Source of the DNA: an uncultured archaeon
Lineage (GTDB): Archaea > Thermoproteota > Nitrososphaeria > Nitrososphaerales > Gagatemarchaeaceae
Length of the DNA stretch: 64,000 nucleotides
Direction: 5' to 3'
Assembly: GCA_963799775.1 (NCBI GenBank)
Contig: CAWCYD010000003.1
Span: forward strand, 1,024,001 to 1,088,000
Both the position numbers and the translations under genes were made by a program. The notes below the pieces were generated by a model. That model made no database searches and was not told the DNA's origin. It was given only the letters and a program-made list of their open reading frames with translations. Below, one piece after another: positions 45,436 to 64,000 of this stretch (position 1 is its first letter; the number at the start of each line of letters is the position of its first letter).

Positions 45436-45441
45436 GATGGC

Positions 45442-45897: not shown

Positions 45898-46579
45898 ATG
45901 AACAAGGCGGTCACAATCACGGGCGCCCTTGTGTGTGCGTCCGGTGTGACGATGTTCTTCTTGGTCGGCCTTCTGCGTTCGGAGACGTATCGGGCCGCGA
46001 TAATGATCTACGAGTACTCCGCCCTCGTGGTGGGAGTGATAGGCGCAGGCGCGTTTGTCTTCGGCCTGGTGGCACGGGACTCGCCTCTCGGCATGATCGA
46101 CACGGAAGGGGTCGCGCGGTTCTACTTCCGCCTGGCGCTCATCAACACGATCTCGGCGGCTCTCTTCGCTGCGCCGGTGCTCGACCCCAGGTTCGAGTTC
46201 CCCATCCTGATAACCCGTTGGCCCGGCGTGTACATGGTAATCGCCTACACTTTCTTCGTGGTAGTCGGCATCATAGGGGCCCTATGCTGGGGCATCTTCT
46301 TCCATCTCCTCCCAAGCATGTTCGATAGGGCCTCCGTGAGGCGGTTCTGGCTCCTCACGCAGGTGGGGGTCACGGAAGTAGGGATCTATCTCTTGGCGAT
46401 CTTCATGTTCTTGGGCGGGTACATAGGGGCGTCCTTGAATTACGTGGGAGACGGGGACTTCATCGTGGGGGCGGCGATGGAGGTTGCGGTCATCCCTGCG
46501 GCACTGGGCATATTCCTGGTCGTCCTCGGGGCACCTCATCGGTGTGGTCAACGTCCTGCTCGCAAGGACCGGGAACTGA
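45898..46579 (+). CDS. 6-TM membrane protein, paralog of 63288..63812; frameshift near 46533
   Basis: PVL.P, WPG..M, F..VG..G, GY.G; shifted frame ends LIGVVNVLLARTGN. Confidence 0.75.
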
Positions 46580-46648
46580 CGGGATTCTCTCGCCACCTTG
46601 CGGTCGGCTAGCCCTTAATAATCACCTAGGCGAGTTATCCAGGCGGCA

Positions 46649-47038
46649 ATGGCTTCAAGGACCGTCAAGATCGAGGTTGCCGGCTTGGCCTTGGTGTTGG
46701 CCTTGGGGATCGGGTATTTCGTCTACTCAAACGCGTCTTCCAACACGAAGGAGATTGACGTCACTCTGGGGGAAGGGAACAGCTACTTCACGCCGACGAA
46801 CGCGACCGCCAAGCTGGGAGACCACGTGACCTTCGTCGTGTTCAACGACGACAGCAATCCTCATGCCTTCGCGATCCAAGCATTCAACGCGACGACCGGC
46901 GTAATCCAGCCGAGCTATTCAGCCAGGATGAGCTTCGTCGCTAACGCGACAGGCAGCTTTCCTTTCTACTCCCCGTTGTCAGCAGACGACGCTTCAGGCA
47001 TGGACAACATCAACGGGACGTTCACGGTGACACAATGA
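46649..47038 (+). CDS. Membrane-anchored cupredoxin-fold protein lacking the type-1 Cys
   Basis: FTP....GD.V, NDD..PH.F.I, F.A...GSFPFYS, GM, GTFTV. Confidence 0.75.
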   Translation: MASRTVKIEVAGLALVLALGIGYFVYSNASSNTKEIDVTLGEGNSYFTPTNATAKLGDHVTFVVFNDDSNPHAFAIQAFNATTGVIQPSYSARMSFVANATGSFPFYSPLSADDASGMDNINGTFTVTQ

Positions 47039-47943
47039 CAGAGCCGAGCAGGACGGGGAAGAGAGTAGAGTCGTACTGGTACCTCGCCCTCGTCCCGATC
47101 TTCGCGATCCTCGCCGTGGTCGAGTTCTATCCAGTTCTCTACTCCTTGTACCTTAGCGTGACGGGTCCGAGCGGCAACTTCACCTTAGGCTACTACTGGC
47201 AGATGTTGACGGACACGGACTTTTGGAGCGCACTGGCTTCATCCCTCACCTACTCGACCATGAGCACGCTCGTCGCGGTAGCGATAGGGCTCTTCCTCAC
47301 CTACCTGGTCACACAGGATTTCCGCGGCAGGAGCATCTACGAAGGCATCTTCATACTCCCGTTGGCCGCGGCCCCGATTGCCGTGGGGATATTCTGGGGC
47401 CCATCAGCTTTCTGGGACGACCTGCAGTCTCTGCTGCACTATCCCATCTCCAGCCTAATCCACTATCAGATACCATATTTCACGGAGACCGGCGTGCTGT
47501 TCTACTTCCCCGTGATGGCCCTATCGGATGCCTGGGAGTGGGCGCCGCTAATCATGCTGGTGGCCTTGAGCATCATCAACTCTAACCCGAAGGAGATCTT
47601 CGAGGCAGCGAAACTGCACGGCGCCTCAAGCTGGCAGGTATTCACGAGGATCGTCGTTCCCACTGTGATGAGGTCTCCAGTCATGCAGTTCGTGATAGTC
47701 CTGAGGTTCATGGACGCCATGCGAGCCTTCGAGATACCTTTGGCCTGGTCAACCTGGGTCGCTCTGTCCACCTCGGTCGGCTCGCCCGTCGATACCCTGA
47801 GCCTCTACCTCTACAAGCTACTCTTCATACCCACGTTCGGCTTCCCGATCGCTCTAGTCTCGACCATCGCCGTCGCCCTATTGGTCGTGACCTTGACAGC
47901 GGTCACCCTGCTGATGCGTCTGCTGGGGACGATTGGAAGGTAG
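47035..47943 (+). CDS. Carbohydrate ABC permease (MalF-like)
   Basis: EAA motif IFEAAKLHGASSWQVF. Confidence 0.88.
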   Translation: MTEPSRTGKRVESYWYLALVPIFAILAVVEFYPVLYSLYLSVTGPSGNFTLGYYWQMLTDTDFWSALASSLTYSTMSTLVAVAIGLFLTYLVTQDFRGRSIYEGIFILPLAAAPIAVGIFWGPSAFWDDLQSLLHYPISSLIHYQIPYFTETGVLFYFPVMALSDAWEWAPLIMLVALSIINSNPKEIFEAAKLHGASSWQVFTRIVVPTVMRSPVMQFVIVLRFMDAMRAFEIPLAWSTWVALSTSVGSPVDTLSLYLYKLLFIPTFGFPIALVSTIAVALLVVTLTAVTLLMRLLGTIGR

Positions 47944-47949
47944 ACGAGA

Positions 47950-48867
47950 TTGACCCGACCAGACAACATCCAGACCGGGGCGAAGGCTGCAGTCGCTCCC
48001 CGCCGCCGTTCGAGGAAGGTCGCGAGGAGGCTGCTCTTCTATCTGGCCTTGCTACTGTTCTCCTTGTATAGCCTGTACCCGTTCATCGCCGTTGGGATGG
48101 ACGGCTTCGACGCGAACATAGCGGCGCTGTTCGTGGGCAACAACATCATCGAGATAGCTGGGTCTCCCTTCCACCAGGGGATCTTCACATTCAATCTGAC
48201 GCACTATCTGGACGCCCTCAGCCTGGGGTCATTCCCGGCAAGGGTGGTCAACAGTCTCCTCATAGGTGGCATCAGTGTCGCCGTCGCGCTCGGAGCCGGC
48301 ATCCCAGTCTCGTACGTCCTCGCGAGAATCGACATCAAGGGAAGGAACGCTATCTCTTACCTGCTTCTCGCCCTAAGGACCGTCTCTCCCTTTGCGGTTG
48401 TCCTCCCACTCTACATCCTGTTCACGAGGATAGGTCTGTGGGACACGTTCCAGGGCGTCGCTCTTGCCGAGCTCCTCCTCATACTCACCGTGGTCGTGTG
48501 GATGGTGAAAGGGTTCTTCGAGGATATCCCCAGGCAGATCTACGACGCCGCCTCTGTGTTCGGCGCTTCAGAGGCGCAGATCCTTCTCCGGGTCGCCATC
48601 CCGATAATATTCACCGGGATCGTGATTACCGCGATATTTGGATTCATCTTGGTCTGGAACGAGTATCTTATAGCGGTGATAATCTCCGGCCCCGTCACAA
48701 AGCCTGTCTCGGTTGGCGTCTTCAACGGTCTCGGGCCCCTCAACCGTTCGCCGGACTTCGTTGACATAGAGGCGGGGGCGACTTTGGCGTTCATCCCCGC
48801 GGCAATCGTGATGCTGGCGATAAGGAAGTACCTGGCGAAGGGATTCAGTCTGGCAACCGCCCGCTGA
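47950..48867 (+). CDS. Carbohydrate ABC permease (MalG-like)
   Basis: NSL, FFEDIP..YDAA..FGAS, WNEY. Confidence 0.88.
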   Translation: MTRPDNIQTGAKAAVAPRRRSRKVARRLLFYLALLLFSLYSLYPFIAVGMDGFDANIAALFVGNNIIEIAGSPFHQGIFTFNLTHYLDALSLGSFPARVVNSLLIGGISVAVALGAGIPVSYVLARIDIKGRNAISYLLLALRTVSPFAVVLPLYILFTRIGLWDTFQGVALAELLLILTVVVWMVKGFFEDIPRQIYDAASVFGASEAQILLRVAIPIIFTGIVITAIFGFILVWNEYLIAVIISGPVTKPVSVGVFNGLGPLNRSPDFVDIEAGATLAFIPAAIVMLAIRKYLAKGFSLATAR

Positions 48868-48978
48868 TCCGAGCCCTCACCCAGACAAGTTGGGGCGGAG
48901 TCCTCGACCTAACGCGGTAAGGACTAGCCTATCGCCGATTCAGGGCCAGAACGGAGTGCAAGTCCTGGCGAAGCCCCG

Positions 48979-49815
48979 TTAGACCAAGTCGACGAACTTG
49001 AAGAGGATTATCATGAGCCCCATGGAGAGGATGCCCCAGAGCAACAGCCCTAGGCTCATGATGTAGACCCCGTTGGCAGCCCCAAAGGAGTTCTCGATGA
49101 TCTCACCGGTCCCAATTAGCTCGGCCCCGTATGCGTTCAGGTGGATCTCGGAGATTAGGCCGGCGCTCTCTATCGGGTTCAGAAGGGCCGCAACGAGCGC
49201 CACCTTCGTCCCGTTTGCGATGGTGAGGATGACTCCGAACGAACCTCCAAAGTCCGAGACGAGGACCAGAAGGAACCAGAGGAAGATGGCGACGCTCAGG
49301 GCCGTGACCTTCCTCCTGCTCATCGTCGAGATTATTATCGCGACCGAGAGCATGATGATGTTTAACCCCAGCGACAGCAAGACTATGAAAGCCAGCCCGT
49401 TCAGGACGCTAGCTCTCACGTTCGCCGCGACGAGGACCGATATCAGGTATCCTGCCGCCAGGACCATGGATGTGGATATCGTCAGGCCGATGAATCTTCC
49501 AGCGAGGAACTGCATCCTCGAGAGGGGATTCGAGAGCAGGTACTGCAGGGTGCCTGACTCCTTCTCCTCCACTATTGTGAGCGCCCCCAGCGGGAGAGAC
49601 AACAAAGGCAGGTATGGGAAGGAGGTGGTCCCGAGATAGACCAGGTAGCTGTTGAGCGTGCTCGGAGGCAGGAGTCTTTCGAAGATGAGTATCAGGAAGG
49701 GGACGTTGATCGTCACGAGGAAATAGACAATCGTGAACATGATCAGCCACTTCGCTCGGATGGACTCCCAGAACGTCTGGGAGACTATCGCGCCGACGAT
49801 CCTTGGGCTGTTCAT
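48979..49815 (-). CDS. ABC-2 type permease, NosY-like
   Basis: 6 TM; EKESGTLQYLLSNPLSR, LLNPI. Confidence 0.78.
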   Translation of the reverse strand: MNSPRIVGAIVSQTFWESIRAKWLIMFTIVYFLVTINVPFLILIFERLLPPSTLNSYLVYLGTTSFPYLPLLSLPLGALTIVEEKESGTLQYLLSNPLSRMQFLAGRFIGLTISTSMVLAAGYLISVLVAANVRASVLNGLAFIVLLSLGLNIIMLSVAIIISTMSRRKVTALSVAIFLWFLLVLVSDFGGSFGVILTIANGTKVALVAALLNPIESAGLISEIHLNAYGAELIGTGEIIENSFGAANGVYIMSLGLLLWGILSMGLMIILFKFVDLV

Positions 49816-50717
49816 GCTGCCGGCTTCTCCTCCAGGAACTTTGTGTAAGCAGCCTCTATCTTCGACGGCTCGATCGCGATGTCGTCCAAGATTCCGCCGT
49901 TCGAGAAGAGGTTGTTGAGCAGAGCGAACTTCCTGCTGTTCGGGATCGAGATGACCATAGTGAGGCTCTTGTCGTTGATTATCTTCGCGTTGTTCTTCGC
50001 TAGGATCTCGGTGACCTCCTTCTCGTGGCCCGCCTTGGGTCTCACGTACAGGATCTGGTCCGCGTCCAGCTGTGCAAGGAGAACGTCCGGGTTGCCTTCC
50101 GCTATCTTCCTTCCTCTGTTCAGCACGATTACCTGGTCAGCGAACTCGCTCAGACCGGTGAGGTGCGTCGCGATCAGGAGCGTGTGGCCCCCGAGAGCGA
50201 GGTTCCTGACCAGCCCAAGGAAGTCGAGCTGTCCTTTGAGGTCGATGTTTGCCAGCGGCTCGTCGAAGATGAGCATCGGCGGGTTCGTCAAAAGCGCCAT
50301 GCCCAAGGCGAAGCGCTGCCTCATACCGCCCGAGAGGGCCTTCATCGTCTTCTTTGTAGCATCTGTCAGCCCGACGATCGCAAGCTTCTCTTGGATCGCG
50401 TCCTTGGATGCCCCCTTGATCTTGGCGATGAAGCGGGCCTCTTGGTCGAGCGTCAGATTTTCGTAGAACGCGCTATATTGAGGGACGTAGCCGATACGGC
50501 CTCGGGCTTGCACTCCCTTCTTCTGGACGTCGATTCCGTCCACGAGGATCGTGCCTGAAAAGCGATGCACGCCCATCGTGGCTTTGATCATTGTGCTCTT
50601 CCCGGCGCCGTTGGGGCCTAGCAATAACGCTCGGCCGTTTTTCGGGACTGTGAACGATACATCCTTGAGCGCTTGGAACTTTCCGAATCTCTTACTTACA
50701 TTCTTGACTTCTAGCAA
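49812..50717 (-). CDS. ABC ATP-binding protein, NosF/CcmA-like
   Basis: GPNGAGKST, LSGGMRQR, FDEP; ATGA overlap with the permease. Confidence 0.88.
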   Translation of the reverse strand: MLEVKNVSKRFGKFQALKDVSFTVPKNGRALLLGPNGAGKSTMIKATMGVHRFSGTILVDGIDVQKKGVQARGRIGYVPQYSAFYENLTLDQEARFIAKIKGASKDAIQEKLAIVGLTDATKKTMKALSGGMRQRFALGMALLTNPPMLIFDEPLANIDLKGQLDFLGLVRNLALGGHTLLIATHLTGLSEFADQVIVLNRGRKIAEGNPDVLLAQLDADQILYVRPKAGHEKEVTEILAKNNAKIINDKSLTMVISIPNSRKFALLNNLFSNGGILDDIAIEPSKIEAAYTKFLEEKPAA

Positions 50718-50837
50718 GAATAGACCAGCAGTTCAAGATGGTGACCATATAACCTTTGTTTCCAGATGGAGATTTTCTCTTTTTCGACAATGCGCGACTT
50801 TCTTCTCGGCGGACTTCGCGCCGACTCACGCCGGCTT

Positions 50838-51560
50838 TCAGACCGCACCGGGGGCCTTGTCGCTCGTCGTCGACGTGGGGGTCTTCTTCGGGCGCATCAC
50901 GATAGCGACCCCGACGACGATGATTCCTAGGCCCAAGACGCCGAACCCGACGTAGTTGGGCGAAGCACCGGGCGGTACCCCGTTCTGCACGAGCATGTAG
51001 CCGATGTTCGTCTGGTTGTCCTCAGGCCTGTAGAAGTTCACGGGCGGGTTGAGGTAGATTTGCGCGTCGACTCTAAGAGTGATGTTCGCAAGCGCCTCCT
51101 GCCCCTGGCCGAGGCCTGTGTTCGCCGGCGTGAGAGGCAGCGTGATGTTGACCGGCCCCCAGGCCTGGCCAGAGCGTAGCTGCAAGGCCCCAAGGTTCTC
51201 GGCCGCTTCGTTGCCGCTCACTCCGACCGTCCCCGAGAGGCTCTTCCCGTTGCTCAGAGAGAAGAGCAAGGTAATGTTGTAGCTGTCCAGGAAGTTCATC
51301 AGTCCCGTGAAGCTGTTGACGCTCATCTTGACTGGAATGGTGAGGTTTTCGTCCACCTGGGTTGTCTGTGGGACTCCGTAGAACACGGTGAAGGTCCCCG
51401 TCCCCTGGCCGTAAGGGTCGACCAAGCTGATGTTGACTTCTCGGTTCAAAGGGATGTCGGCTCTCGCCTGGCTCATCGTCCCAAGCAGGAGGAGGCACAA
51501 TAGGGAACCGACGGAAACGAGTCTTGCAACCTCTCTTCGGCGTCTTGCCTTCTCGTTCAT
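50838..51560 (-). CDS. Exported beta-rich protein with C-terminal TM anchor
   Basis: Signal peptide MNEKARRRR..ARA, N-glycosylation sequons, C-terminal hydrophobic helix plus RPKK. Confidence 0.7.
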   Translation of the reverse strand: MNEKARRRREVARLVSVGSLLCLLLLGTMSQARADIPLNREVNISLVDPYGQGTGTFTVFYGVPQTTQVDENLTIPVKMSVNSFTGLMNFLDSYNITLLFSLSNGKSLSGTVGVSGNEAAENLGALQLRSGQAWGPVNITLPLTPANTGLGQGQEALANITLRVDAQIYLNPPVNFYRPEDNQTNIGYMLVQNGVPPGASPNYVGFGVLGLGIIVVGVAIVMRPKKTPTSTTSDKAPGAV

Positions 51561-51580
51561 TCTAGAGCAACTCGGGCCGG

Positions 51581-53147
51581 CTAGAGGCTCGCTGCCTCTG
51601 TGAAGGTGAGGTTGGGAAAGTCCTGGTTGATCTGGTTCTGGGCGTTGGTCAGGGCCTCCTGGGGCGTCTCCGAGCCGGTCCAAGCGTTGTTCAGATGCAC
51701 CGAGAGAGGGACCAAGACATTCAGCCATTGAGGAAAGGGCGTAAGCGCGGTGGTGCCGGTAGACCACGCCTGCTTCGCGACATTGAACGCGGATAGAGCG
51801 CCCGTGCTGATCTCGTTCTGAACCTCCTGCACACTGAGGACCGAGGTCAGTGGTGGGGAAGATGTGGTATTGACCGAGGAGCATCTGCTCCTGCACGCCC
51901 ATGCACGTCGCCCATTGGATCCAGAGATACGCGGCTTCTGGACGATTGGAGAACGCCGAGACCCCGAGCCCAGCCCCTCCGTAGGTCGAGAACGACCCGT
52001 TGGGGCCTGCTGGGTTGAGAGTTGGCACGAACTGCCCTGCCGCGAGCGGCGAGCGCTGGGGGTCGTTGAGCCAGTTGTAGTAGTCGTGCCAGAGGACCGC
52101 CGTCGCCGATGTGCCTTGGGCAAGGGATGTGAACTGGTCGGTCCATGTGAAGCTGTGCGAGCCCGGGTCCGCGTATTGCGCGAACCTCACGTAGTTTTCG
52201 AGGGCCGCAAGGCACTCGCTGCTCTCAAAGTTGGGGGAGATGTTGTTCCCATCGATTGTCCACAAGCTTCCCCCGAAGCTGGCAAGGTGGTTGAGGAACT
52301 CGTAGACTATCGAGACGTCCGCGTTCGCCATGCTGACCGAGGCGAAGGCAGTCCCGTTCCCTCCCAGCTTCTGGCACTGCTGGTAATACTCGTCCCAAGT
52401 CGTTGGCGCGGAGAATCCGAGCTTGTCGTAGATGTCCTTCCTGTAGAACAGGACCATCACGGGCGCATCGAGTGGGAACAGATTGAAGTTGGTGCGTGAG
52501 GCAATCGTGGTGCTGGTCGCGGTTCCTGTCGCCGCGATGGGCGGTGGATATGAGGCCACGTAGTCCCACACCGTGTTCGAGAAGTCGCTTGTATTGTATT
52601 TCGGGTAGGTCAGCTCGGGATACGTCTGGGCCAATTTCACCGGAGAGATGATCCCGTTCTCGAATGAGGCGATGTTCTGGTTGTCGATGCTGAAGACGTC
52701 GTAGGAGGGGCTCTTGGTGCTCACGGCAAGGGTGACCTCCTCCAGTTGGACCAGGTAGGGGACGGGGTTGTAGCCTGCAGAGATGCCGCTGTATTGGAAG
52801 AAGGTCGGGTCGAGAGCCTCGAGAGCATATGGGGCGAACTCTGCCTCCAAGGAAGTAACAACAGTCTTGGAAGGCACCTTGTCTACGACGCTCTGCATCC
52901 ACTCCAAGAAGTCAAGGTAGTCCGGCAGGAGGTTCGAGGCGGAAGAAATCGTCGTTGTTGTGGAAAGAATCTTGTTGATGCCCGCATTTGGGTTGACCTG
53001 TAGCCCGTATATGCCAAGGTCTGCCGCGCCCGCTGCAATCAGCGCGCCGCCTGCCGCGCCGAGCGCCAATCGCAGGAAGTTCCTGCGCGAAGTCCTCCTG
53101 ACTGCCGGTTTCTTAGGAGGGGTCTGGGCCTCGGTTGGACTAGACAT
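51581..53147 (-). CDS. Tat-exported carbohydrate ABC substrate-binding protein, frameshift near 51850
   Basis: SRRNFL, LFYRKDI, PTTWDE, GLGVS, EAAY.WIQW; shifted frame ends TPQEAL. Confidence 0.85.
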
Positions 53148-53284
53148 CGGCTAAAATCAGCGACTGAGACGCGTCAACCGCGGCGTAATAATGTTTGTCC
53201 ACGTTTGAGGATTGACACTGTCAAGGGTCCAGGCGGATGCACCTGCTTACAGGTTGGCTCGATACTGGATGGCCCTGGAGGTGG

Positions 53285-53833: not shown

Positions 53834-53907
53834 TTAAAATCGTTTCTTTCGGCGCTTGCAGAACTCATATATCACCCACGCAGGCTCCCACATAGGCAGC
53901 TCCCTCA

Positions 53908-55048: not shown

Positions 55049-55098
55049 TCGTGGTTCGACGGGTCTGAGCCCGCGCTGTGGACTCTTCCAGACCTTGC

Positions 55099-57750
55099 TC
55101 AGGTAGGCGCCACGCCAGGCCCGACTCGCTTGCGAGTGAGCACCATCGCTCCCGCGATCACTGCGAGTATGACGACCGCGCCCACGAGGGCATAGAAGGC
55201 GTCGCTGTAGACGCCTATTCCAGACACGGTGGTCGTCTGGGGCCCCGTGCTGCTGCTGCTAGACCCTGATCCCAGTGAGAGCGAAATCACATCTCCCGGC
55301 ACGATGTACCCATGGCCGAGCGGCCCGTGGAGGCCTACCTCGCCTAGCACGGCGTGCTGAGTGCCTCCGAAGGTCAGGAGCAGGTGCATGTTCCCTGCGC
55401 CGTCGGGTGCGATGCTCATGGGTGCGAGCAGAGGCAGCCCGAAGTTGATGTCGCGTATCACTTGGCCGTTGCTGGCGTCCAAGAAGATCAGCTGGCCGTC
55501 AGGCCATTGGGTGATGAGCATCCCGCCGGTGGCTAGGACACCGCCTCTGTAGTAGATCCCTCTCGTGTAGTTCCAGACTACCTGACCGGTGGCCGGGTTG
55601 AGGGCGAGCACGGTCGCGTTCGTCGGCATTGTCCCTGCGAAGTAGAGGTCCGTATCGAACGTCAGGCCGGAGGTGCCCTTGTAGTTGACGTCGCTGATGA
55701 AGTCGTGCTCCATGGGGCCGTCCTGAACGACGACGTAGAAGTACTTGCCATCGTAGGCGTTCTCAGACTCCATCAGATACCTCGCCTCGGTGAATCCCTT
55801 CTTCGAGGCTTCCAGTGATGGGCAGGAAGGCACCGAGGAAGAGATGCTCGTCGAGAACTCCGGGCATCCCAGATTCGTCCCCACTCCCGCCAAGGCTTGG
55901 CACTGGGCAGTCGTACCTATCGGACACGTGAACTGCATCATCTCAGTGTTGTTTAGTGGGTTGAAGTCGACGCTGCCCCTGTATGGGCTGGGGGACACAT
56001 AGCCGTGTGGATGCGGGTTGGTCCCCTGCATCTTCAGAGTCCCGGTGTCATACGCATGGTAGATCTTGTCCCAAGCCGCTCCATAGTTGCAGCTCGTGAC
56101 ATTGGTCGCGCTGCATTCGAAGGGCTGAGATAAAGCGGAAGTCCCTGACGAGGAGCCTACGGTGCTCTGGTTCGGCATCGTAGTGTCGAGGATCCAGACG
56201 GGTGCGCCGGTTATCTCGTTTATCCCGTACACGACGCCGCCCTTGCAAGCCTTCAACACCATCGGGTTGTTGTTGACGTTAGCCATCGTCACGTTGAGGT
56301 TGCAGTCTTGGTCGTTGATGTCCTTCGCGACGGTCTTGTCGACCCAGATGATGCTGCCGTTCGTCAAGCTCAATGACACGATCGAGTCGGCCAACAGGTT
56401 CGGGCCTGTGCGGAAGGTAGAGTTCCAGTCGGGAGCTGCCTGTGAGGTTCCCATGATGAAAGTGCCGTGGGCGTCATCTAGCGCGAAATTACCCCAGCTG
56501 TTGCTCATTCCGCTGCTAGGGCCTATGGTCGTGTTCCATGCAGCCTGGTTGGCCGGGAACTGCCAGTCGTTCTGAATTAGGCTCTGCGTTAGGTCCGAGC
56601 AAGGTACCCCAGCAATCCAGACGTGAGGATTCTTGCAGATATTTACTGAAAAGTTGGGCGTGCTGCCGTCGAGTGCGGGGAACTCGAATGTTCTCCATAG
56701 AAGGCTGCTGCCCGAGGAACAAACTCCTCCGGCCGACGTTGTGCACGGACCCCCGTTGACGCCGTCTAGGCTAGTCGACATGTTTGCGGTGCAGTTGTCC
56801 CCTGGATTGGTGTACTTGCCGGTGGTTGCGTTCAGGTTCAAGGCGTCCGATAGACTGCATCCTTCGACGAACGCTCTGCCTTGACCCGTGCCCTCCGCCG
56901 ATCCACCGCCATACTCTAGAATGACGTTGTGCGCGGCGTCCACTTGGATCTCTGCGTCGCCGTACGGGTAGTACTGCCCGGTACCTGTCGTCGGCCTGAC
57001 GTTTCCAGGGATGTTGTCACAGAGCCCTGTTAGGTTCGCCCTGAGCTGGTAAGTGTTCGCGTCCCAGCCCTGAAGCTGGCAACCGAATCCTGGGACCCAG
57101 ATGATCCCGTCGACTAGATTGACACCATGAAGATGTCCTGGACCGTATCCTGGCGCTATCGGTTCCTTGGCGAAATACGCCCAGTCCATGCTTGGGAAGT
57201 CAGAGCCGAGGAGCTTGCCAGTCGCGAGATCGATGGCATAAACAGAGAGACCATTTGTGACCACGTATCCCACTCCACCAGAGGTTACAACAGGTGCCTG
57301 GGTTCCTTCCAGGCCTGTGCTGTAGACGAGCCCTGGGAAACGGCACTGCGATGTCCCGTTGACGTAGTTGCAGGGACCCCATGCGGGCGTGCTGCTCCAG
57401 ATGCTAGGTATCGGGAAGATGTATGAAGTCTGAAGGTTCCCTACGTTACTCGATGTGATCTGCGTCTGTGGCGAGTAGTTCCAGCCATTAGTCCCATAGG
57501 TGCCGGGACCCGTGTCCTCTGTCCAATCTAGGCTGCCCCCCGAGGAGCTAGAAGAGCTGGAGTTGGTCGTGGTTGTCGCGAGAGGCGAAGTCCCAAGGGG
57601 GACGGAAGCCTGCGCCAACGCGTTAGTGCTGCCTTGGGTGGATCCGGCTGCGCTCTGAACGAGCGGGACGCCGACCACGGAAGCCATCAGAAGCAATCCA
57701 GTGATTGCGAAGCAAGAAAACGCAGAGATTCGAGTAGACTGTGAACCCAT
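55099..57750 (-). CDS. Membrane-anchored PQQ-dehydrogenase-fold beta-propeller protein, His/Cys-rich
   Basis: YSP..QI...NV..L, YAIDLATGK, SWG..ALD, APDW...R.GPNL..DSIV, KDINDQD, ALNPATGQVVW, GGVLAT.G; signal peptide and C-terminal TM. Confidence 0.82.
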   Translation of the reverse strand: MGSQSTRISAFSCFAITGLLLMASVVGVPLVQSAAGSTQGSTNALAQASVPLGTSPLATTTTNSSSSSSSGGSLDWTEDTGPGTYGTNGWNYSPQTQITSSNVGNLQTSYIFPIPSIWSSTPAWGPCNYVNGTSQCRFPGLVYSTGLEGTQAPVVTSGGVGYVVTNGLSVYAIDLATGKLLGSDFPSMDWAYFAKEPIAPGYGPGHLHGVNLVDGIIWVPGFGCQLQGWDANTYQLRANLTGLCDNIPGNVRPTTGTGQYYPYGDAEIQVDAAHNVILEYGGGSAEGTGQGRAFVEGCSLSDALNLNATTGKYTNPGDNCTANMSTSLDGVNGGPCTTSAGGVCSSGSSLLWRTFEFPALDGSTPNFSVNICKNPHVWIAGVPCSDLTQSLIQNDWQFPANQAAWNTTIGPSSGMSNSWGNFALDDAHGTFIMGTSQAAPDWNSTFRTGPNLLADSIVSLSLTNGSIIWVDKTVAKDINDQDCNLNVTMANVNNNPMVLKACKGGVVYGINEITGAPVWILDTTMPNQSTVGSSSGTSALSQPFECSATNVTSCNYGAAWDKIYHAYDTGTLKMQGTNPHPHGYVSPSPYRGSVDFNPLNNTEMMQFTCPIGTTAQCQALAGVGTNLGCPEFSTSISSSVPSCPSLEASKKGFTEARYLMESENAYDGKYFYVVVQDGPMEHDFISDVNYKGTSGLTFDTDLYFAGTMPTNATVLALNPATGQVVWNYTRGIYYRGGVLATGGMLITQWPDGQLIFLDASNGQVIRDINFGLPLLAPMSIAPDGAGNMHLLLTFGGTQHAVLGEVGLHGPLGHGYIVPGDVISLSLGSGSSSSSTGPQTTTVSGIGVYSDAFYALVGAVVILAVIAGAMVLTRKRVGPGVAPT

Positions 57751-57988
57751 GCTGTGCTACGTGAACCGAGAATTTCTGTATTTAAATTTGCCTAAATTCT
57801 CCGAAGCGTATCTGAACTCCGGGGCGCCGCAGAAAACCGAGCCAATCAGTCCCCGATTTGCGCTGCTTCTGGGATGGGGGGCGAAATAGAACTCCCGCTA
57901 GAACCTTGGGTGAGCGGCTTGTTGCAGAAAAGAGCAAGCGTTCGAGCTTTGCTATCGGTACGGGACTGGAGGATGACTTGGGATAGGC

Positions 57989-58003
57989 AAGAAAAAAGGA
58001 AGG
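57989..58003 (-). terminator. Oligo-T terminator
   Basis: CCTTCCTTTTTTCTT immediately after the stop of 58004..61078. Confidence 0.55.
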
Positions 58004-61000
58004 TTAGGCGCTTGGTCTCCTGCGGAGAACGACCAGAGCGCCTGCGACGATAGCGAGGATAGCTGCGACGCCTACTGCCCCGTAGAATGCGAGGTTGGAG
58101 ACGCCAGATGTGCCGATGCTAGTTGTCACGATAGAGGTAGCGGTCACCGTTGCAGAACCACTGACCACTGAGGTCGTGGTGAATGTCGAAGTGGTGACTG
58201 AGCCGCCTGAACCAGTGATTGTTGTTACACCAGTGCTAGTGACTGTTTGAGTTGTTGTTGTTACGACCGTTGATGCTGCTGTTGCTGGACCTAGGACGTA
58301 CGAGATGATGCCGCCGGTGGTCACTTGTCCGCGACCAAGAGCGCCATGGATGCTCGGGTTGCCCAGGTTGCCGTGGTTAGCTCCGCCGTAGCTGACGAGT
58401 ATGTGCATTACGCCATTCGCGTCAGGTGCGATGCTGTTCGGCGCCAAGAGTGGGATACCCACGTTGATGTCTCTCAGAAGGGCGCCCGTCTGTTCATTAA
58501 TGAAGTCGAGGTGCCCGTCTGGGTACGCGGCCATTACCATTCCACCGAACGTGAGGACTGAGCCTCTGTAGTAGATTGGCCTCTGGAAGTACCAGAGAAG
58601 TTGGCCGGTTGAGATTTGGATTGCCCACACTGTGGAGTTGGATTGCTGGAGACCTGCGAAGTACAGAGAGATGCCCGAGACGTTGCCGGACTGGCCTTGC
58701 TTCGCCACATCACCGATCCAGTCGTGTTCGGCTGGACCTGTCATGGCTGAAGTGACCCAGATTCCGGTTGACGGGTCGATCGAAGTCTCTGTCTCACCTA
58801 TGTACCTCTCCTCGTAGTATCCATTGCCCTTGCCCTGGACGTCCGCAGCAATGCATGCTGCATGGGAGCCTGTTGGGCAGGTGAACCCTGGGTTGCACGA
58901 GTTGTTGGTTGTTCCAACGCCTGTACACGTGCCTACCTCAGTGTTGTTCAATGGGTCGAGGTTGGGTGAGCCTCTCATGAGGCCTCCGTTGATGAATCCG
59001 TGCGGATGCGGGTTGGTACCCTGCATCTTGATGGCGTTCGCGCCGCCCAACCAGTTGTTGGGGTAGCTCGAGTTTTCGTTGATTCTGTGAGCGATCGCAT
59101 CCCAGATCTTGCCTGAGTCGCAAGCAGTCGCGTTAGTCGCGCTGCAGAGCAACGGGCGTGACATTTGAGATGTCGTTGCGGAGTTGATTGTCGTGTAGTC
59201 TGGCATAGATGGATCGATCCACCACAGGGGTTGCCCTGTAATGGCGTTCATTGCGTATCCAACTCCCGACTTGCACTGCTTGATGAAGACGCCGCCGCCG
59301 TTGGGCATCAGTCCGCCACTAGGCAGGGGCAAGTTCATCGGTATGTCGTTGATCGGTGTTGCACTGTATTGGGATCCTTGGTTGTTCGTACCTACGCCGG
59401 ATATGGTTTCGACCGAGCCTGTATTGACGGTCGAGCCGCCGCCGGTGACGTACGCTGTTGGGTTGTTAGCGCTTCCCGCGGGACCAAGCGACGTGAAGAC
59501 TGTGTTAAGGTTACAGTCTTGGTCGTTGATGTCCTTGGTGAAGCTCTTGTTGCTCCATAGGATTGCACCGTTGCTCAAGTTGAACGCGACGTCAGCATTA
59601 CAGAATATGCTGAAGCCCATACGGAGGGTGTCGTTCCAGTCGGGTCCGGTGTCACCGGTGCCCTCTGCAATGATGTTATCCTTCGGGTCGATTGCCAGCT
59701 GTCCCCAGACGTTGCTGCAACCAGTGCTCGGGAAGACTGCGTCTCCCTGATCCTGTGATACAGCTAGGTCGGGCCTCTGGCCGTCGGCCGCGATGATGTT
59801 GGCGTTAACCGCCATAATTGCAGAACATGGAACGCCTGCGATCCATATGATGTTCGGGGTATGTGTGCAGTACGGAACTGCAAAGTTGGGGTTGGCTCCT
59901 GAATATGCCGGCATGGTGAATGTTCTCCAGAGCATGGTGCTACCGGACGAGCAAACGCCTCCTGAGACGGTGTTGCACGCACCGCCGGAACTACTATCAG
60001 TGTAGTTCGGCGCGCAGGTAGAGCCAGTTCCTGGCACATACTGCGAGAGTGCGAGCGATAGGCTGCACGCGTAGGTAAAGGCGGGGAATCCGCCGCTGCC
60101 TTCGCTAGAGCCAGACGCCCAGAAGACGATCTCGTTGTCCCACGGAACGACCTGGACGGGTCCATTGCCGTTGCTGGTCATCTTTCCAGAGCCTGCAACC
60201 GGGTGGATGCTTCCAGGTACCGGGTTCGCTGCGCTTCCGCACATGCCGGTCAGGTTAGCAACGAGTGCTCCCGTCGCTACTTGCCAGCCGAGGATGCTGC
60301 AGCCGAATCCGCCTACCCACGCGACGTCACCGACTGAACCACCGACGTTAACGATGTTCCAGGAGTGGTCGTGGGTAGGTCCGCCAGACGCCATCGGGTT
60401 CTTTAGCCATGCTGTGAAGTCATTTGCATTGAACATCTCGCTCACCGAGCCGATACATGGAGTCGGAGAACCAGCAGGCAGCGCCTTCGCTGCAGCTGCG
60501 ATTACCGAGCCCAATGATTGACCAGTGCCAACTGTGCAGCTAGTAGGTGTCGGCTGAGACAGTGTTGCCCCAGCGGCGGCGCCCGTAGCCAAGTTGAACG
60601 CGAAGATGTCCAGATAGTTGGTGAGTGTGTATCCTATTCCGTTAGACGTGAGCGTTGCTACCTGCGTTCCCTCGGAATTGCCTGAGTATGTTAGCCCAGG
60701 AACTCTTGTTGCGAACGGAGTAGAGGAGCTCAGCGTGCTAGGGATTGGGAAGATGTACGAGACTTGCAGCTGTCCAATGTTCGCCGAAGTAATTTGCGTC
60801 TCCGGTGAGTAGTTGGATGTGCAGCTTAGAGTCTGTGTATTGCACCCTCGTGTACCTCCAGTTCCCTCAGTCCAGTCGAGCGACGAGTTGTACGCAGTCG
60901 CACCCGGCAAGATTGTCGGGGCTACTGGTGCTAACGGCGCCGTTGCGATTGAAGAGGGGGTAGAGGCGGTCGCGGCCTTGCTGTTGGCAATGCCGAAAAC

Positions 61001-61078
61001 GGGGGAGTTGACCATTGAAGAGCATAGAAGGATTGTTGATATTGCTATCGAAGTTAGTAGAGTTGCCTTTGTTTTCAT
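58004..61078 (-). CDS. Membrane-anchored PQQ-dehydrogenase-fold beta-propeller protein, paralog of 55099..57750
   Basis: Shared blocks SYIFPIPS, WRTF, WIAGVPCS, KDINDQDCNLN, KMQGTNPHPHG, IYYRG, PLLAP; Ser/Thr stalk and C-terminal TM. Confidence 0.82.
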   Translation of the reverse strand: MKTKATLLTSIAISTILLCSSMVNSPVFGIANSKAATASTPSSIATAPLAPVAPTILPGATAYNSSLDWTEGTGGTRGCNTQTLSCTSNYSPETQITSANIGQLQVSYIFPIPSTLSSSTPFATRVPGLTYSGNSEGTQVATLTSNGIGYTLTNYLDIFAFNLATGAAAGATLSQPTPTSCTVGTGQSLGSVIAAAAKALPAGSPTPCIGSVSEMFNANDFTAWLKNPMASGGPTHDHSWNIVNVGGSVGDVAWVGGFGCSILGWQVATGALVANLTGMCGSAANPVPGSIHPVAGSGKMTSNGNGPVQVVPWDNEIVFWASGSSEGSGGFPAFTYACSLSLALSQYVPGTGSTCAPNYTDSSSGGACNTVSGGVCSSGSTMLWRTFTMPAYSGANPNFAVPYCTHTPNIIWIAGVPCSAIMAVNANIIAADGQRPDLAVSQDQGDAVFPSTGCSNVWGQLAIDPKDNIIAEGTGDTGPDWNDTLRMGFSIFCNADVAFNLSNGAILWSNKSFTKDINDQDCNLNTVFTSLGPAGSANNPTAYVTGGGSTVNTGSVETISGVGTNNQGSQYSATPINDIPMNLPLPSGGLMPNGGGVFIKQCKSGVGYAMNAITGQPLWWIDPSMPDYTTINSATTSQMSRPLLCSATNATACDSGKIWDAIAHRINENSSYPNNWLGGANAIKMQGTNPHPHGFINGGLMRGSPNLDPLNNTEVGTCTGVGTTNNSCNPGFTCPTGSHAACIAADVQGKGNGYYEERYIGETETSIDPSTGIWVTSAMTGPAEHDWIGDVAKQGQSGNVSGISLYFAGLQQSNSTVWAIQISTGQLLWYFQRPIYYRGSVLTFGGMVMAAYPDGHLDFINEQTGALLRDINVGIPLLAPNSIAPDANGVMHILVSYGGANHGNLGNPSIHGALGRGQVTTGGIISYVLGPATAASTVVTTTTQTVTSTGVTTITGSGGSVTTSTFTTTSVVSGSATVTATSIVTTSIGTSGVSNLAFYGAVGVAAILAIVAGALVVLRRRPSA

Positions 61079-61123
61079 CCTTGTTCTACAGTAAACGAAT
61101 ATTGTCTATTTAACTCTAGCGAC

Positions 61124-61167
61124 AAATCTGCAAATTTATTGAATCCTTAACAGGAGGATGCAGATTT
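61124..61167. repeat. Intergenic inverted repeat
   Basis: AAATCTGCA (61124-61132) and TGCAGATTT (61159-61167). Confidence 0.5.
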
Positions 61168-61181
61168 TTTATTAAAATCGC

Positions 61182-63074
61182 TCAGCCGAAGGTCGGAACG
61201 CCGCTGCCAGCTATGCCCACGCCCCCAGGCGTGAAGAGCTCGGTCTCCACGACCTCCTTGCTTATCTCACTACGTCCGGCGACGACGAGGCCGCTCTGAC
61301 CGTGCTCGCCCGCCATGACAAGTATGCTAGTTATCGTCTGGACCGCGTGGATGTCCGCCAATTGGGACCCGGTGACGGTGCTTGCGACGTAGATCTCGCC
61401 CTGGATCGTACCCATGTAGGCGATTCCGCTGGCGACCATTATGAAGCTGAATTGCTGGTTCGCGACGGGGGCCTGCCAAGCGAAGGTGAGCTTTGACAGG
61501 TCGAAGGCGAAGGCAGTGCTGTTCCAATTGTTGCCAAGAGGGGTCTGACTTCCGAGGGAGCTTGAACGAGGGTCGAGCGCTCCGATGAGCAGCTTGTTGT
61601 TCGAATCGTAGGAGATGTTCGCGTTGTTGACCTCCACCGGTCTGGTAGAGTTCGAGGCCCCCGTGATGGATGCGAGTGTCTCCTTCATCTGCGTCTGGTT
61701 CATGATGTTAGGGATAGTCGCGCCCGAGACCCTTGAGACGCCGGGCATCTGACCCGAGTATAGCAATGCTCCGGTGGTCGGGTTGAGAAGGAAGAGGTAA
61801 CCGTTCTCGCACTGCTTGGCGATGACCTGTTGACTGGTCCCGCCGATGGTGGCCTGGACGAGTGCGATGTTTCCCTTGCAACCCCAGCCCCAGACGTCGT
61901 GTGGTGTGAGCTGGAAGGTCCACAGGATGTTCCCTGTCGTCGTTTGGAGGGCGATTATCGAGCTGCTGAACAGGGCCGGCCCGTTGAAAGCGCTGTTCAT
62001 CGAGACAGTCTGAGGAGGGCTGGTGACGATATAGGTCGTGTCCGTCGCTGTGTCCGAGACCCAGCTCGAGTTCGAGTCAGGCCCTGAGCTGTATACGGCG
62101 TTCCCTGACTGCGCTGTCCAGTCGTTGGACAAGAGGGATTGCACCGTGCTTGTTGGAAGGGTCCTCAGGTCGACGGCCGAGGGCCCGTTGAACTCCCAGA
62201 CGTGAGGAATCGAGTTGACCTGCGCCAGCTCCCAGCCAGGGTTGCTCCCGTCCTGAGGAGGCGAGAGATACGTCAGCCATTGCTGGGTGGCACTCTCCAC
62301 CTTGAACGATGTTGAGGCGAAGGAGAGCGTCACGTTCTTCGTCCCCAGCTTCCAGCCTTCGATGAGCCCCCGTCCGGGAATTCCGGTGGTGTTGACGCTC
62401 GGGCCTGTCACCAAGATCGACCTAGGTTCGTCGATTGCAAGGTTGGGCGCCGCCCATGAGTACGTCCCCACGTTGCCGTCTTGCCCCTTGGCGGGGACCG
62501 TCTCGTTGAATCCGTAGTTGGCGTTGACTGCTCCTACTGACAAGAACCCGTAGACGCCGTCCCACGGAGTTGTCGCCCAGACCTCAGGCTGGCCGCCGAT
62601 CGTCCTAGTGGCTTCCACATGGAAGTAGGGGGCGACCGATGGTATCTGGTTGCTTGGTGCGTTGGGCATCGGCGCACTGTAGACTTCGAGCTGAGTCTCG
62701 ATGTTCACCGCGTACATCTCGAAGTTGCCGACGTTGCCGAGGTAAGCAATCCCTCCCAGACCCACCTGTCTGCTTATGCCTCCGGCCACGAAGGGTGTGG
62801 CTTGGTAAGGATAGGAATTGTAGGCGCTCTCAGCAAGCAGAGAGGCGTTGGCAGGCGGTAGCCCCGGGTCCGAACTACAGCCGCAACCGAAGACGTCTCC
62901 GTACTCTGTGAGGGAGTCGTATGACGGCGGCCCCGTTGACGTCGTACTCGTCTTTGTCAATACGGCAGGTGCCTCAACGTAAATCACGGCGATTACGATC
63001 AGGGCCGCGATCCCGAGCGCGATGAACATGTTCCGATCTCTGGATTTGGAACGCGGCCTTGACTTGACGGCCAA
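61182..63074 (-). CDS. Divergent PQQ-fold protein with N-terminal TM anchor, catalytic acids missing
   Basis: GRGLIEG, GPALFSSSIIAL...TG..LW.FQ.TPHDVWGWGC, CENG..F.L...TG. Confidence 0.75.
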   Translation of the reverse strand: MAVKSRPRSKSRDRNMFIALGIAALIVIAVIYVEAPAVLTKTSTTSTGPPSYDSLTEYGDVFGCGCSSDPGLPPANASLLAESAYNSYPYQATPFVAGGISRQVGLGGIAYLGNVGNFEMYAVNIETQLEVYSAPMPNAPSNQIPSVAPYFHVEATRTIGGQPEVWATTPWDGVYGFLSVGAVNANYGFNETVPAKGQDGNVGTYSWAAPNLAIDEPRSILVTGPSVNTTGIPGRGLIEGWKLGTKNVTLSFASTSFKVESATQQWLTYLSPPQDGSNPGWELAQVNSIPHVWEFNGPSAVDLRTLPTSTVQSLLSNDWTAQSGNAVYSSGPDSNSSWVSDTATDTTYIVTSPPQTVSMNSAFNGPALFSSSIIALQTTTGNILWTFQLTPHDVWGWGCKGNIALVQATIGGTSQQVIAKQCENGYLFLLNPTTGALLYSGQMPGVSRVSGATIPNIMNQTQMKETLASITGASNSTRPVEVNNANISYDSNNKLLIGALDPRSSSLGSQTPLGNNWNSTAFAFDLSKLTFAWQAPVANQQFSFIMVASGIAYMGTIQGEIYVASTVTGSQLADIHAVQTITSILVMAGEHGQSGLVVAGRSEISKEVVETELFTPGGVGIAGSGVPTFG

Positions 63075-63178
63075 AGGAAAACTAGCCCGAACCCGCCCTT
63101 TGATTTATTAAAGTCTTTTGCACAAATGCCGAACTCTTGCAATATCTCGGAAAAACGGCGATATCCGAAACGTGCGCT

Positions 63179-63280
63179 CTAGTAGTGTCCGAAGACCAGG
63201 TAGATCTCGATGCCCACGATGACAGCCATGACGGCAAGGATTCCTATGAGCACGAGGGACCTCTTCAGTCGCCGGCTCAC
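63179..63280 (-). CDS. 33-aa single-TM peptide (not in ORF track)
   Basis: GTG start 7 nt after the upstream stop; MSRRLKRSLVLIGILAVMAVIVGIEIYLVFGHY. Confidence 0.65.
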   Translation of the reverse strand: MSRRLKRSLVLIGILAVMAVIVGIEIYLVFGHY

Positions 63281-63287
63281 TCCGATC

Positions 63288-63812
63288 TCAACCTTCGCTT
63301 GTTGCAGTGATGACATTGATGATCCCCGTTATCGTCGAGAGCAGCGCGATCACGATTAGAGTGCCTATGGGAATGACAGCCCAAGCTATGATCTGGGTGA
63401 TGACGGCCTGGCCGAATCCGTTGTGATACAAGTGCCCCCCATAGTAGCCTGCGTCTATGCCCATGAATGCGCAGATTCCGAATACGGCCCCCTCGAACGT
63501 GGTCAACTGGGCCAGAGCTAGAAAGTCGCTGACCGTGTTCCTGTCGTAGACCCTCGGCAGCATGTAGTAGATGAAACACCACAGGAAGCAGCCCACGACG
63601 CCGACTATCACAAAGACGAACCAGGAGATGAACATCCACGTGCCCGGCCAGACCTCCATCTTGAGAGGAAGGCCAAGTTGCGGCACTAGGACAGGGAGAG
63701 TAGCGGCGACGGCCACCACGATGTTGAACAGGCCCATCTTGAAGAAGTACCTTGAGGCCTGCTCAGAACGGACCGGCCCGAAGAGCGGCTGCTGACCCAT
63801 GTTCTTCACCAT
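63288..63812 (-). CDS. 4-TM membrane protein, paralog of 45898..46579
   Basis: GGAGG ribosome-binding site; PVL.P, WPGTWM, VGVVG, GYYGG, AVIP. Confidence 0.78.
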   Translation of the reverse strand: MVKNMGQQPLFGPVRSEQASRYFFKMGLFNIVVAVAATLPVLVPQLGLPLKMEVWPGTWMFISWFVFVIVGVVGCFLWCFIYYMLPRVYDRNTVSDFLALAQLTTFEGAVFGICAFMGIDAGYYGGHLYHNGFGQAVITQIIAWAVIPIGTLIVIALLSTITGIINVITATSEG

Positions 63813-63877
63813 TCAACCTCCTAAAGCACTTGCAAATGAGGGTTTGGGAGTCTCAGGCGTCTCTTCGAGGCCCGGCT

Positions 63878-64000
63878 CTACTGTAGAGTTCGCTCGCTGG
63901 ACCTGTTCGTGCTACGCTTCCTCTTGATGTAGACCACGAGCGGAAGCGAGGCCAGGTAGCACGCCACGGCGATCGCAGCGGCAGCCCCTCCGTAGAAGTA
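63878..64000 (-). CDS. C-terminal end of a membrane-anchored protein (5' part outside window)
   Basis: YFYGGAAAAIAVACYLASLPLVVYIKRKRSTNRSSERTLQ-stop. Confidence 0.6.
   Translation of the reverse strand, partial: YFYGGAAAAIAVACYLASLPLVVYIKRKRSTNRSSERTLQ

Follow-up and report, generated by a model that had tools for sequence, protein, structure and literature searches.

What do the genes between positions 45898 and 64000 of the 64,000-nt stretch of contig CAWCYD010000003.1 analysed here (the window) do, given that all of them encode membrane, exported or ATP-binding cassette (ABC) proteins? The window, with a G+C content of ~60%, probably comes from a close relative of Ca. Gagatemarchaeaceae within the Nitrososphaerota that does not oxidise ammonia, and its first 44 kb carry archaeal ribosomal protein genes, SecY, succinate dehydrogenase and Suf genes. 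An earlier reading of the DNA (the original prediction) proposed an undescribed extracellular oxidation complex built on three proteins with the fold of pyrroloquinoline quinone (PQQ) enzymes, with its own cofactor maturation and membrane electron exit and a link to uptake. Open reading frames (ORFs), Pfam and NCBIfam bore out the gene inventory on which that proposal was based, and the interpretation as a whole is partly supported. The reading that we favour, with modest confidence, is a collinear envelope block with a propeller trio as its core, in which PQQ883 and PQQ1024 are likely active, PQQ630 is dead and the electron acceptor lies outside the recognised genes.

The propeller trio

The three propeller genes are as follows.
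55099-57750, minus strand: PQQ883, a propeller of 883 residues (PF01011, E 3.5e-23)
58004-61078, minus strand: PQQ1024, a propeller of 1024 residues (PF01011, E 4.9e-13)
61182-63074, minus strand: PQQ630, a propeller of 630 residues (PF01011, E 2.6e-15)

All three score above the PF01011 gathering threshold and, together with the profile alignments given below, these matches confirm that the envelope block is built on divergent quinoprotein-fold propellers. PQQ883 and PQQ1024 are 35% identical to each other and share the same conserved residue set and the same anchoring, with a hydrophobic N-terminal segment (a signal peptide in PQQ883), a Ser/Thr-rich stretch (a Ser-rich stalk in PQQ883) and then a C-terminal hydrophobic anchor; they carry 19-23 Cys residues and 13-17 potential N-x-S/T glycosylation sites. 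Close homologues number ~30 for the PQQ883/PQQ1024 family and ~20 for PQQ630, and the named ones are proteins of Thaumarchaeota metagenome-assembled genomes.

PQQ883 and 23 relatives, including PQQ1024, were aligned (24 sequences), and comparison of their profile with 22 bacterial PQQ dehydrogenases from the same search by hhalign gave a probability of 100 and an E value of 1.9e-43 over 600 columns. The bacterial H-D-x-W-D-x-D motif aligns with K-D477-I-N479-D480-Q-D482, the K-x-G motif with C502-K503, G-G-x-x-x-W with G414...W419 and the metal-site Glu with E286. A profile search returned the same register against the solved quinoprotein ethanol dehydrogenase 6zcw, placing H-D-G-W-D-F-D over K-D-I-N-D-Q-D, D480 and D482 on the W-D-F-D motif and W419 on the aligned Trp. 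Eight residues (E286, W419, P440, D441, D477, D480, D482 and K503) are invariant in 24/24 sequences; in column 437, which aligns with the Asn metal ligand, Asp (14 sequences) and Gln (8) prevail over single cases of Asn and Glu, and the D-x-D motif has Gln (12), Tyr (7) or Glu (5) between its two Asp.

Judged by residue conservation, the catalytic centre would consist of Glu286, Asp/Gln437 or Asp441, Asp480 and Asp482, with Trp419 as its floor and Lys503 nearby. Activity as dehydrogenases that depend on PQQ and metal is most likely for PQQ883 and PQQ1024, which would be held outside the membrane by their C-terminal anchors and would oxidise alcohols or sugars. A lanthanide-type site at their Asp-x-Asp is possible; D-Y-D is presented as a mark of lanthanide enzymes in passages of Aylward and Santoro 2020 (PMC7300363).

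The third propeller reads differently at the corresponding positions. Aligned through 20 sequences of its family, PQQ630 is likewise related to bacterial PQQ dehydrogenases (hhalign probability 99.9, E 1.2e-30), and the family reads H-D-V-W-G381-W-G383, with Gly at both Asp positions in 20/20 and Glu (E408) at the Lys position in at least 90% of the sequences; the Trp-floor and P-D positions are likewise altered. PQQ630 has an N-terminal anchor only, and its database version begins at 63029 (615 aa). It is apparently a catalytically dead paralogue and would probably serve as partner or scaffold. The extracellular oxidation proposed originally is therefore plausible, because two propellers retain catalytic and metal residues, and it does not extend to PQQ630.

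The best NCBIfam match of PQQ630 is TIGR04528, 'acido-empty-quinoprotein group A' (E 1.6e-18), a name that we take to denote a quinoprotein fold whose cofactor site has apparently been lost. The two share that fold, whereas the score of 66.8 lies far below the cut-off of 650 and PQQ630 belongs to the archaeal lineage of PQQ883 and PQQ1024. All three propeller families share lineage-specific features, such as a Cys after D-x-D and a Cys before the Lys position, and a common insertion. A FastTree phylogeny of 58 sequences joins the 883-type and 1024-type clades as sister groups (support 100) and puts the 630-type, with its long branch, among the same archaeal sequences. Each of the three clades contains one window gene and one gene of the related locus described below, and the trio is therefore old, with one member having lost catalysis. 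The core of the envelope block would be this set of paralogous, surface-tethered, disulfide-rich propellers of quinoprotein type. The literature search found no published work on empty quinoproteins or PQQ pseudoenzymes; the subfamily figure of PMC10640624 or the data sets of PMC7300363 may already set the 630-type apart.

Several points weigh against an enzymatic core. The bacterial quinoprotein alcohol dehydrogenases (ADHs; 6zcw, ADH-IIG 22vi, ADH IIB 1kv9 and XoxF 4mae) have a homologous propeller, and PQQ883 and PQQ1024 preserve the residues at their Glu, Trp-floor, catalytic-Asp, second-Asp and Lys/Arg positions. The two archaeal proteins are, however, only ~22% identical to them, carry large Cys-rich insertions and a C-terminal membrane anchor, have no cytochrome c domain or partner, and replace the Trp of the W-D motif by Asn479. 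The region aligned to the bacterial enzymes holds no vicinal Cys-Cys pair; two other conserved Cys, C483 and C502, lie on either side of the site. At the Asn metal-ligand position PQQ883 itself has Gln, and the geometry of the proposed site is taken from alignment. The full-length family TIGR03075/TIGR03074 gives 67.7 (PQQ883), 47.3 and 60.2 bits for the three propellers, so that all three are far from reaching the curated PQQ alcohol dehydrogenase cut-off of 480. No recognisable electron acceptor is encoded in the window. Nor did any of the 16 + 54 = 70 window ORFs scanned match a pqq-family Pfam domain, which agrees with the absence of PQQ synthesis genes noted originally; for the clade, passages of PMC10640624 report only pqqC.

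The missed enzyme cut-offs and the lack of pqq genes in the window would suit propellers that act as structural, adhesive or glycan-binding surface glycoproteins with a quinoprotein fold, in an envelope island with unrelated transporters. The lost catalytic residues of PQQ630, with its below-cut-off match to an 'empty' quinoprotein group, point the same way, as does the combination of Cys and N-x-S/T richness with a stalk-plus-anchor architecture typical of archaeal surface proteins. Set against this, the eight active-site-aligned residues are invariant in 24/24 sequences across two paralogous clades that are only 35-41% identical overall, an invariance hard to account for unless a ligand site is conserved, and we regard a non-enzymatic role as unlikely.

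A related locus and the surrounding genes

The genes around the trio, and one non-coding stretch between two of its members, are listed here in order.
45898-46611, plus strand: TM4_A, with ~6 transmembrane (TM) segments, the long member of a small family resembling oxidase subunit I, without heme His
46649-47038, plus strand: cupredoxin-like protein of 129 aa, N-terminally anchored (Cupredoxin_1, PF13473, E 7.7e-8)
47035-47943, plus strand: CUT1-type ABC importer permease 1, GlcT/UgpA/MalF-like (Pfam, NCBIfam)
47950-48867, plus strand: CUT1-type ABC importer permease 2, GlcU/MalG-like (Pfam, NCBIfam)
48979-49815, minus strand: ABC-2 permease, NosY-like (PF12679, E 8.1e-17)
49812-50717, minus strand: ABC-2 type ATPase, NosF-like by full-length alignment to NosF
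50838-51560, minus strand: X240, an anchored protein without assigned family, with signal peptide, ectodomain of ~170 aa and C-terminal TM anchor
51581-53147, minus strand: Tat-signal sugar-binding protein, SBP_bac_1, in two frames (Pfam, NCBIfam)
53285-53833, minus strand: anch182, an N-terminally anchored protein of 182 aa without assigned family, with a Ser/Thr-rich ectodomain
53908-55048, plus strand: MalK/UgpC-type ABC ATPase, frameshifted (Pfam, NCBIfam)
61079-61122, minus strand: 44-nt stretch upstream of the PQQ1024 start codon, probably promoter and leader
63179-63280, minus strand: 33-aa single-TM peptide between TM4_B and PQQ630, conserved in the relative
63288-63812, minus strand: TM4_B, a short 4-TM paralogue of TM4_A
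63878-64000, minus strand: C-terminal end of an anchored protein, comprising a TM anchor and a basic tail; the related locus has a 271-aa homologue ahead of TM4

The plus-strand genes from TM4_A to permease 2 converge with the minus-strand genes from the NosY-like permease to anch182, and the end of the cupredoxin-like gene overlaps the start of permease 1 by 4 nt. The C-terminal anchors of PQQ883, PQQ1024, X240 and the protein at 63878-64000 are alike, with aromatics, a Gly/Ala-rich helix and a basic tail (RKR, RRR, KRKR); the NCBIfam C-terminal sorting models gave no match to these sorting-signal-like anchors. A search for paralogy among the anchored proteins without assigned family, or between them and the cupredoxin-like protein, found no similarity.

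Conservation of the neighbourhood was assessed by a scan of the contigs of species-representative genomes, which gave 14 pattern matches, of which two were confirmed, in one locus. This 14.5-kb locus (L001) lies on contig PLCG01000088.1 of isolate palsa_1368, a genome that passages of Sheridan et al. 2023 (PMC10640624) assign to the topsoil genus within Ca. Gagatemarchaeaceae. The overlap of L001 with the window runs from ~50300 to 64000, a span that excludes the NosY-like permease, the importer permeases, the cupredoxin-like protein and TM4_A. Of the 11 window features covered, 10 are retained in identical order and orientation, the only one missing being anch182. Protein identities are 80% for TM4, 58% for PQQ630, 58% for PQQ1024, 66% for PQQ883, 74% for MalK, 71% for the binding protein and 56% for X240; the tail of the 271-aa anchored protein is present, and the peptide is 58% identical over 41 aa (E 1.6e-10).

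As predicted, the cluster continues past the window: its final 111 nt correspond to the C-terminal end of the 271-aa anchored L001 protein. Further upstream, L001 encodes a DUF929 protein (2-793) and a 160-aa anchored protein with 9 Cys (967-1449), and the envelope block therefore extends beyond the window end. Two indirect hints point to additional trios, namely the consecutive locus tags OK455_06470, 06475 and 06480, which are 883-, 1024- and 630-like, and two further pairs of 883-type and 630-type clusters that agree in longest-contig size (41401 and 119036).

The syntenic part of the argument has its own counterweights. The sample with flanks is a single related locus from the same family as the window, so that the conserved order possibly reflects inheritance and not selection. 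For the ABC-2 ATPase, identity is as low as 45%, measured over the first 143 aa up to the contig end. Neighbourhood conservation, put forward originally as a check, thus holds to the extent that 10/11 features are collinear in one relative, and possibly by mere common descent.

Transcription signals were considered next to gene order. AT-rich TATA-like hexamers lie 25-50 nt upstream of 10/19 start positions checked, among them those of all three propellers, TM4_A, the cupredoxin-like protein, the ABC-2 ATPase, MalK and the binding protein. In L001 these boxes recur ahead of the PQQ630, PQQ1024, MalK, binding-protein and ATPase orthologues. Boxes before individual genes suggest several transcription units, against a single operon. 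The stretch at 61079-61122 is identical in 43/44 nt to L001 5094-5137, the DNA farther upstream having diverged; it contains the TATA-like TTAAATA, is unique in the window and is probably a constrained promoter and leader of the PQQ1024 gene, whose protein products are only 58% identical despite this match. Scans for bacterial promoters and terminators gave results at chance level.

Three genes of the cluster shift frame. In the binding-protein gene a 1-nt indel at 51852-51856, in the run CCCCACCAC, is evident against the intact 520-aa L001 orthologue, and the wrong frame remains open into X240; the resulting 769-aa ORF (50838-53147), considered as one gene, is an artefact of the frameshifted binding protein being read through. 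The MalK gene shifts near 54905-54930, with its TOBE-like C-terminus in the next frame, and TM4_A shifts near 46530, its family-typical end LIGVVNVLLARTGN lying in another frame with a stop at 46579. All three are probably assembly indel errors, because SecY, a SufB/D-type (SufD) gene and a LivH-like permease (11682-13103, 27034-28096 and 710-1952) are also split into two ORFs each; pseudogenisation of the importer was dropped as an explanation, since essential genes are split too. The density of uncorrected indels in the assembly would be roughly one per 5-10 kb.

Elsewhere in the window, genes for a TauE/SafE-type anion exporter and DUF1634 (44572-45840) lie directly upstream of TM4_A on the same strand, the TauE gene being preceded by a TATA-like box. 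An IS605 OrfB (TnpB-like) ORF at 38774-39808 falls within the window's lowest-G+C stretch (0.54 vs ~0.60), and an 800-aa ORF of the phosphoesterase family occupies 31253-33655 (PF04185, E 1.2e-76). Rfam gave no match in 44-64 kb, and repeats in the window reflect the paralogy of PQQ883 and PQQ1024 only.

Proposed electron transfer, metal loading and sugar uptake

Where would the electrons go? A cupredoxin fold is supported for the 129-aa protein by PF13473, and among solved structures it is closest to nitrosocyanin (E 1.1e-7) and the CuA domain of NosZ (E 1e-4). Across its family (20 sequences, all ~129 aa), however, the position of the copper-binding Cys is Ser in 19/20, including the window protein, and no His occurs in the C-terminal loop. 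At the Met position 15 sequences have Met, 3 have Glu and 2 have Leu; several Asp are conserved, and the single retained His, His72, is invariant and presumably aligns with a ligand position of nitrosocyanin and NosZ CuA. On these residues the protein is not recognisable as a copper electron carrier, which removes the carrier of the original prediction, and the 'plastocyanin' labels that one source places on its relatives lack copper-site backing.

The proposed membrane electron exit fares no better. TM4_A and TM4_B are 32% identical over 142 aa (E 7e-26), TM4_A having two extra N-terminal hydrophobic segments, and their family, with 4-helix and 6-helix forms, is small (56 cluster representatives at E<=1e-3 among 1.84 billion). 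Pfam COX1 (PF00115) matches 8/38 members at profile positions 309-418 of 436, the best at E 3.8e-8 with 33.0 bits, short of the cut-off of 34.8; the cbb3 subunit I model matches 7/38. Searched against PDB, the family profile retrieves oxidase subunit I chains only (E 0.004-0.02), and TM4 v-i-a-Y-f-s-F aligns with helix-X V-I-A-H-F-H-Y of 7rh6_R, a cytochrome c oxidase subunit 1 chain. Weak matches to other repeats of cbb3 CcoN were also seen. The likeness to heme-copper oxidase subunit I (COX1/CcoN) thus covers the helices X-XI region, one four-helix unit, whereas the oxidase subunit has a twelve-helix core against four or six helices in TM4, and TM4 scores stay below curated cut-offs. Both heme-ligand His are replaced (H-F-H to Y-f-s), and in no column of the 38 sequences does His exceed 12/38 or Cys 4/38. 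The exit is therefore without a sequence basis, and the likeness is an evolutionary lead and no basis for electron transfer. A degenerate COX1/COX2 pair formed by TM4_A and the cupredoxin-like protein was also considered and rejected, there being no COX2 chain among the 52 PDB matches of the cupredoxin-like protein at E<=1.

The absence of CxxCH proteins noted originally held in all frames for window ORFs >=60 aa. As far as the locus can be read, it encodes no electron carrier or membrane exit; in the reading with two active propellers and one dead one, reduced PQQ would pass its electrons to the quinone pool or to a genuine blue copper protein encoded elsewhere.

The 33-aa peptide would have 45 aa if started at ATG 63316, in which case it overlaps the end of the TM4_B gene. 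Its C-terminus, IVGIEIYLV(F/I)G(H/K)Y, is conserved between the window and L001 (2986-3108). It was considered as a PqqA-like precursor and rejected: it is a hydrophobic TM helix with E-I-Y, in place of the E-x3-Y that we take to be the spacing of the PqqA motif.

The ABC-2 pair resembles NosF and NosY, as predicted. The sole PDB match of the permease at E<=1 is NosY (7o0y_D, E 3.1e-9, residues 14-222 vs 11-225 of 276), and residues 2-297 of the ATPase align with residues 4-297 of 308 in NosF (E 1.2e-29), which nevertheless ranks below eukaryotic ABCA transporters (best E 1.3e-38). What is missing is a nos context: Pfam and NCBIfam detected no NosD, NosL or NosZ relative among the 16 cluster proteins. 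X240 occupies the position of nosD relative to the ATPase and permease, in an order as in nosDFY, and had no match at E<=10 and no similarity to NosD, its sole detectable relative being the L001 orthologue. In the NosDFY complex (7o0y), which delivers copper during nitrous oxide reductase maturation, the likeness covers NosY, NosF over its full length and a preceding gene for an exported protein, whereas X240 is unrelated by sequence to NosD and is membrane-anchored.

The importer set is complete for the CUT1 class, with SBP_bac_1, two BPD_transp_1 permeases and a MalK/UgpC-type ATPase with a TOBE-like tail, as in MalEFGK2; unlike those systems, its genes are spread over three transcription directions and two are frameshifted in the assembly. 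The nearest solved relatives of the binding protein are sugar binders, including the trehalose/maltose-binding protein 1eu8, and the L001 orthologues of the binding protein and the MalK-type ATPase are intact.

These data bear directly on an integrated extracellular redox module, in which the propellers oxidise, the cupredoxin carries, the 4-TM protein passes electrons on, the NosFY-like pair matures and the importer takes up product. All parts are adjacent and all are envelope proteins; the order TM4-peptide-trio-MalK-binding protein-X240-ATPase recurs in L001, and the NosF/NosY likeness among solved structures, X240 in the nosD position, the nitrosocyanin and NosZ CuA relatives and the distant likeness of TM4 to oxidase subunit I also speak for it. 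The module is contradicted by the loss of the Cys ligand in 19/20 cupredoxin-like sequences and of the C-terminal-loop His, by the replaced heme His of TM4, whose 38 sequences share no His, Cys or Met that could act as a ligand, and by X240 showing no NosD similarity. Separate TATA-like promoters also speak against it, and the part with the cupredoxin, permease and TM4_A genes lies outside the stretch covered by L001. We consider such a module distinctly unlikely.

A narrower proposal gives X240 and the NosF/NosY-like pair the role of a NosDFY-style machine that loads metal or cofactor onto the propellers, with the Cys-less cupredoxin-like protein as a metal chaperone. NosDFY is described in passages of PMC13685413 as an ATP-driven Cu(I) transfer machine and not a pump, with NosD as its periplasmic part. 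The X240-ATPase-permease order mirrors nosD-nosF-nosY, the X240-ATPase order recurs in L001, both NosY and NosF are matched, and the cupredoxin-like family retains His72 together with several Asp. X240, however, is half as large as NosD, no similarity between the two could be detected, a separate TATA-like box precedes the ATPase gene, and the link to the propellers is drawn by analogy. PF12679-type ABC-2 permeases are, to our knowledge, widespread and mostly unrelated to nos, which also counts against this role. We hold it to be improbable.

A bolder possibility, which we likewise give little credence as a whole, is that the anchored protein, TM4, the 33-aa peptide and the dead propeller form a new membrane dock for archaeal surface quinoproteins. 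A stand-alone, heme-less, oxidase-derived four-helix module would, together with the one-helix peptide and the pseudo-enzyme propeller, hold the two active, possibly lanthanide-type dehydrogenases at the membrane and pass their electrons to the quinone pool, and X240 with the NosFY-like machine would load metal or cofactor from outside. In the collinear block that we favour, the neighbours (CUT1 importer, NosFY-like pair, X240, cupredoxin-like protein, TM4 pair and peptide) are possibly coupled functionally to the propellers.

Place among thaumarchaeal surface quinoproteins

How new is the locus? In passages of Sheridan et al. 2023 (PMC10640624), PQQ dehydrogenases of Gagatemarchaeum are said to occur 'in adjacent pairs or trios', a gain of pqqC is noted in the clade, and eight PQQ-dehydrogenase genes are listed for palsa-1368, including _01924, _01926 and _01927. 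For heterotrophic marine Thaumarchaeota (HMT), passages of Aylward and Santoro 2020 (PMC7300363) describe 21 divergent PQQ families that have signal peptides and TM segments, lack the Cys-Cys motif and carry D-Y-D or D-x-D, and suggest electron transfer to quinone or blue copper proteins; a passage of a 2026 paper again places such genes among the most expressed. The window matches these accounts in its 8-bladed homologues with signal peptides, TM segments, no Cys-Cys and D-x-D/D-Y-D, in their adjacency as pairs or trios and in phylum and probably family, and palsa_1368 is itself listed there. The locus is therefore a further example of known thaumarchaeal surface quinoprotein clusters.

The claim that the module was undescribed consequently survives in part. 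Co-located PQQ-dehydrogenase pairs and trios are published (PMC10640624, PMC7300363), whereas the accessory genes TM4, the 33-aa peptide and X240 with the NosFY-like pair appear undescribed within the literature searched. The passages on these gene clusters in both papers make no mention of a dead trio member, an oxidase-like 4-TM protein, a 33-aa peptide or transporter neighbours, and those in PMC10640624 make none of ABC-transporter, sugar-transport, cupredoxin/blue-copper or complex IV neighbours.

Acid soils, peat and the deep ocean harbour abundant Thaumarchaeota that do not oxidise ammonia, and the many surface quinoproteins of these archaea are thought to channel electrons from external organic matter directly into respiration; we know of no such enzyme that has been characterised. 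The locus offers two paralogues with a predicted intact Asp-x-Asp metal site, and a naturally dead paralogue, PQQ630, usable as an internal control. The conserved neighbours include candidate partners of these surface quinoproteins, namely the oxidase-like 4-TM protein that lacks the heme His, the 33-aa peptide, and X240 with the NosFY-like pair.

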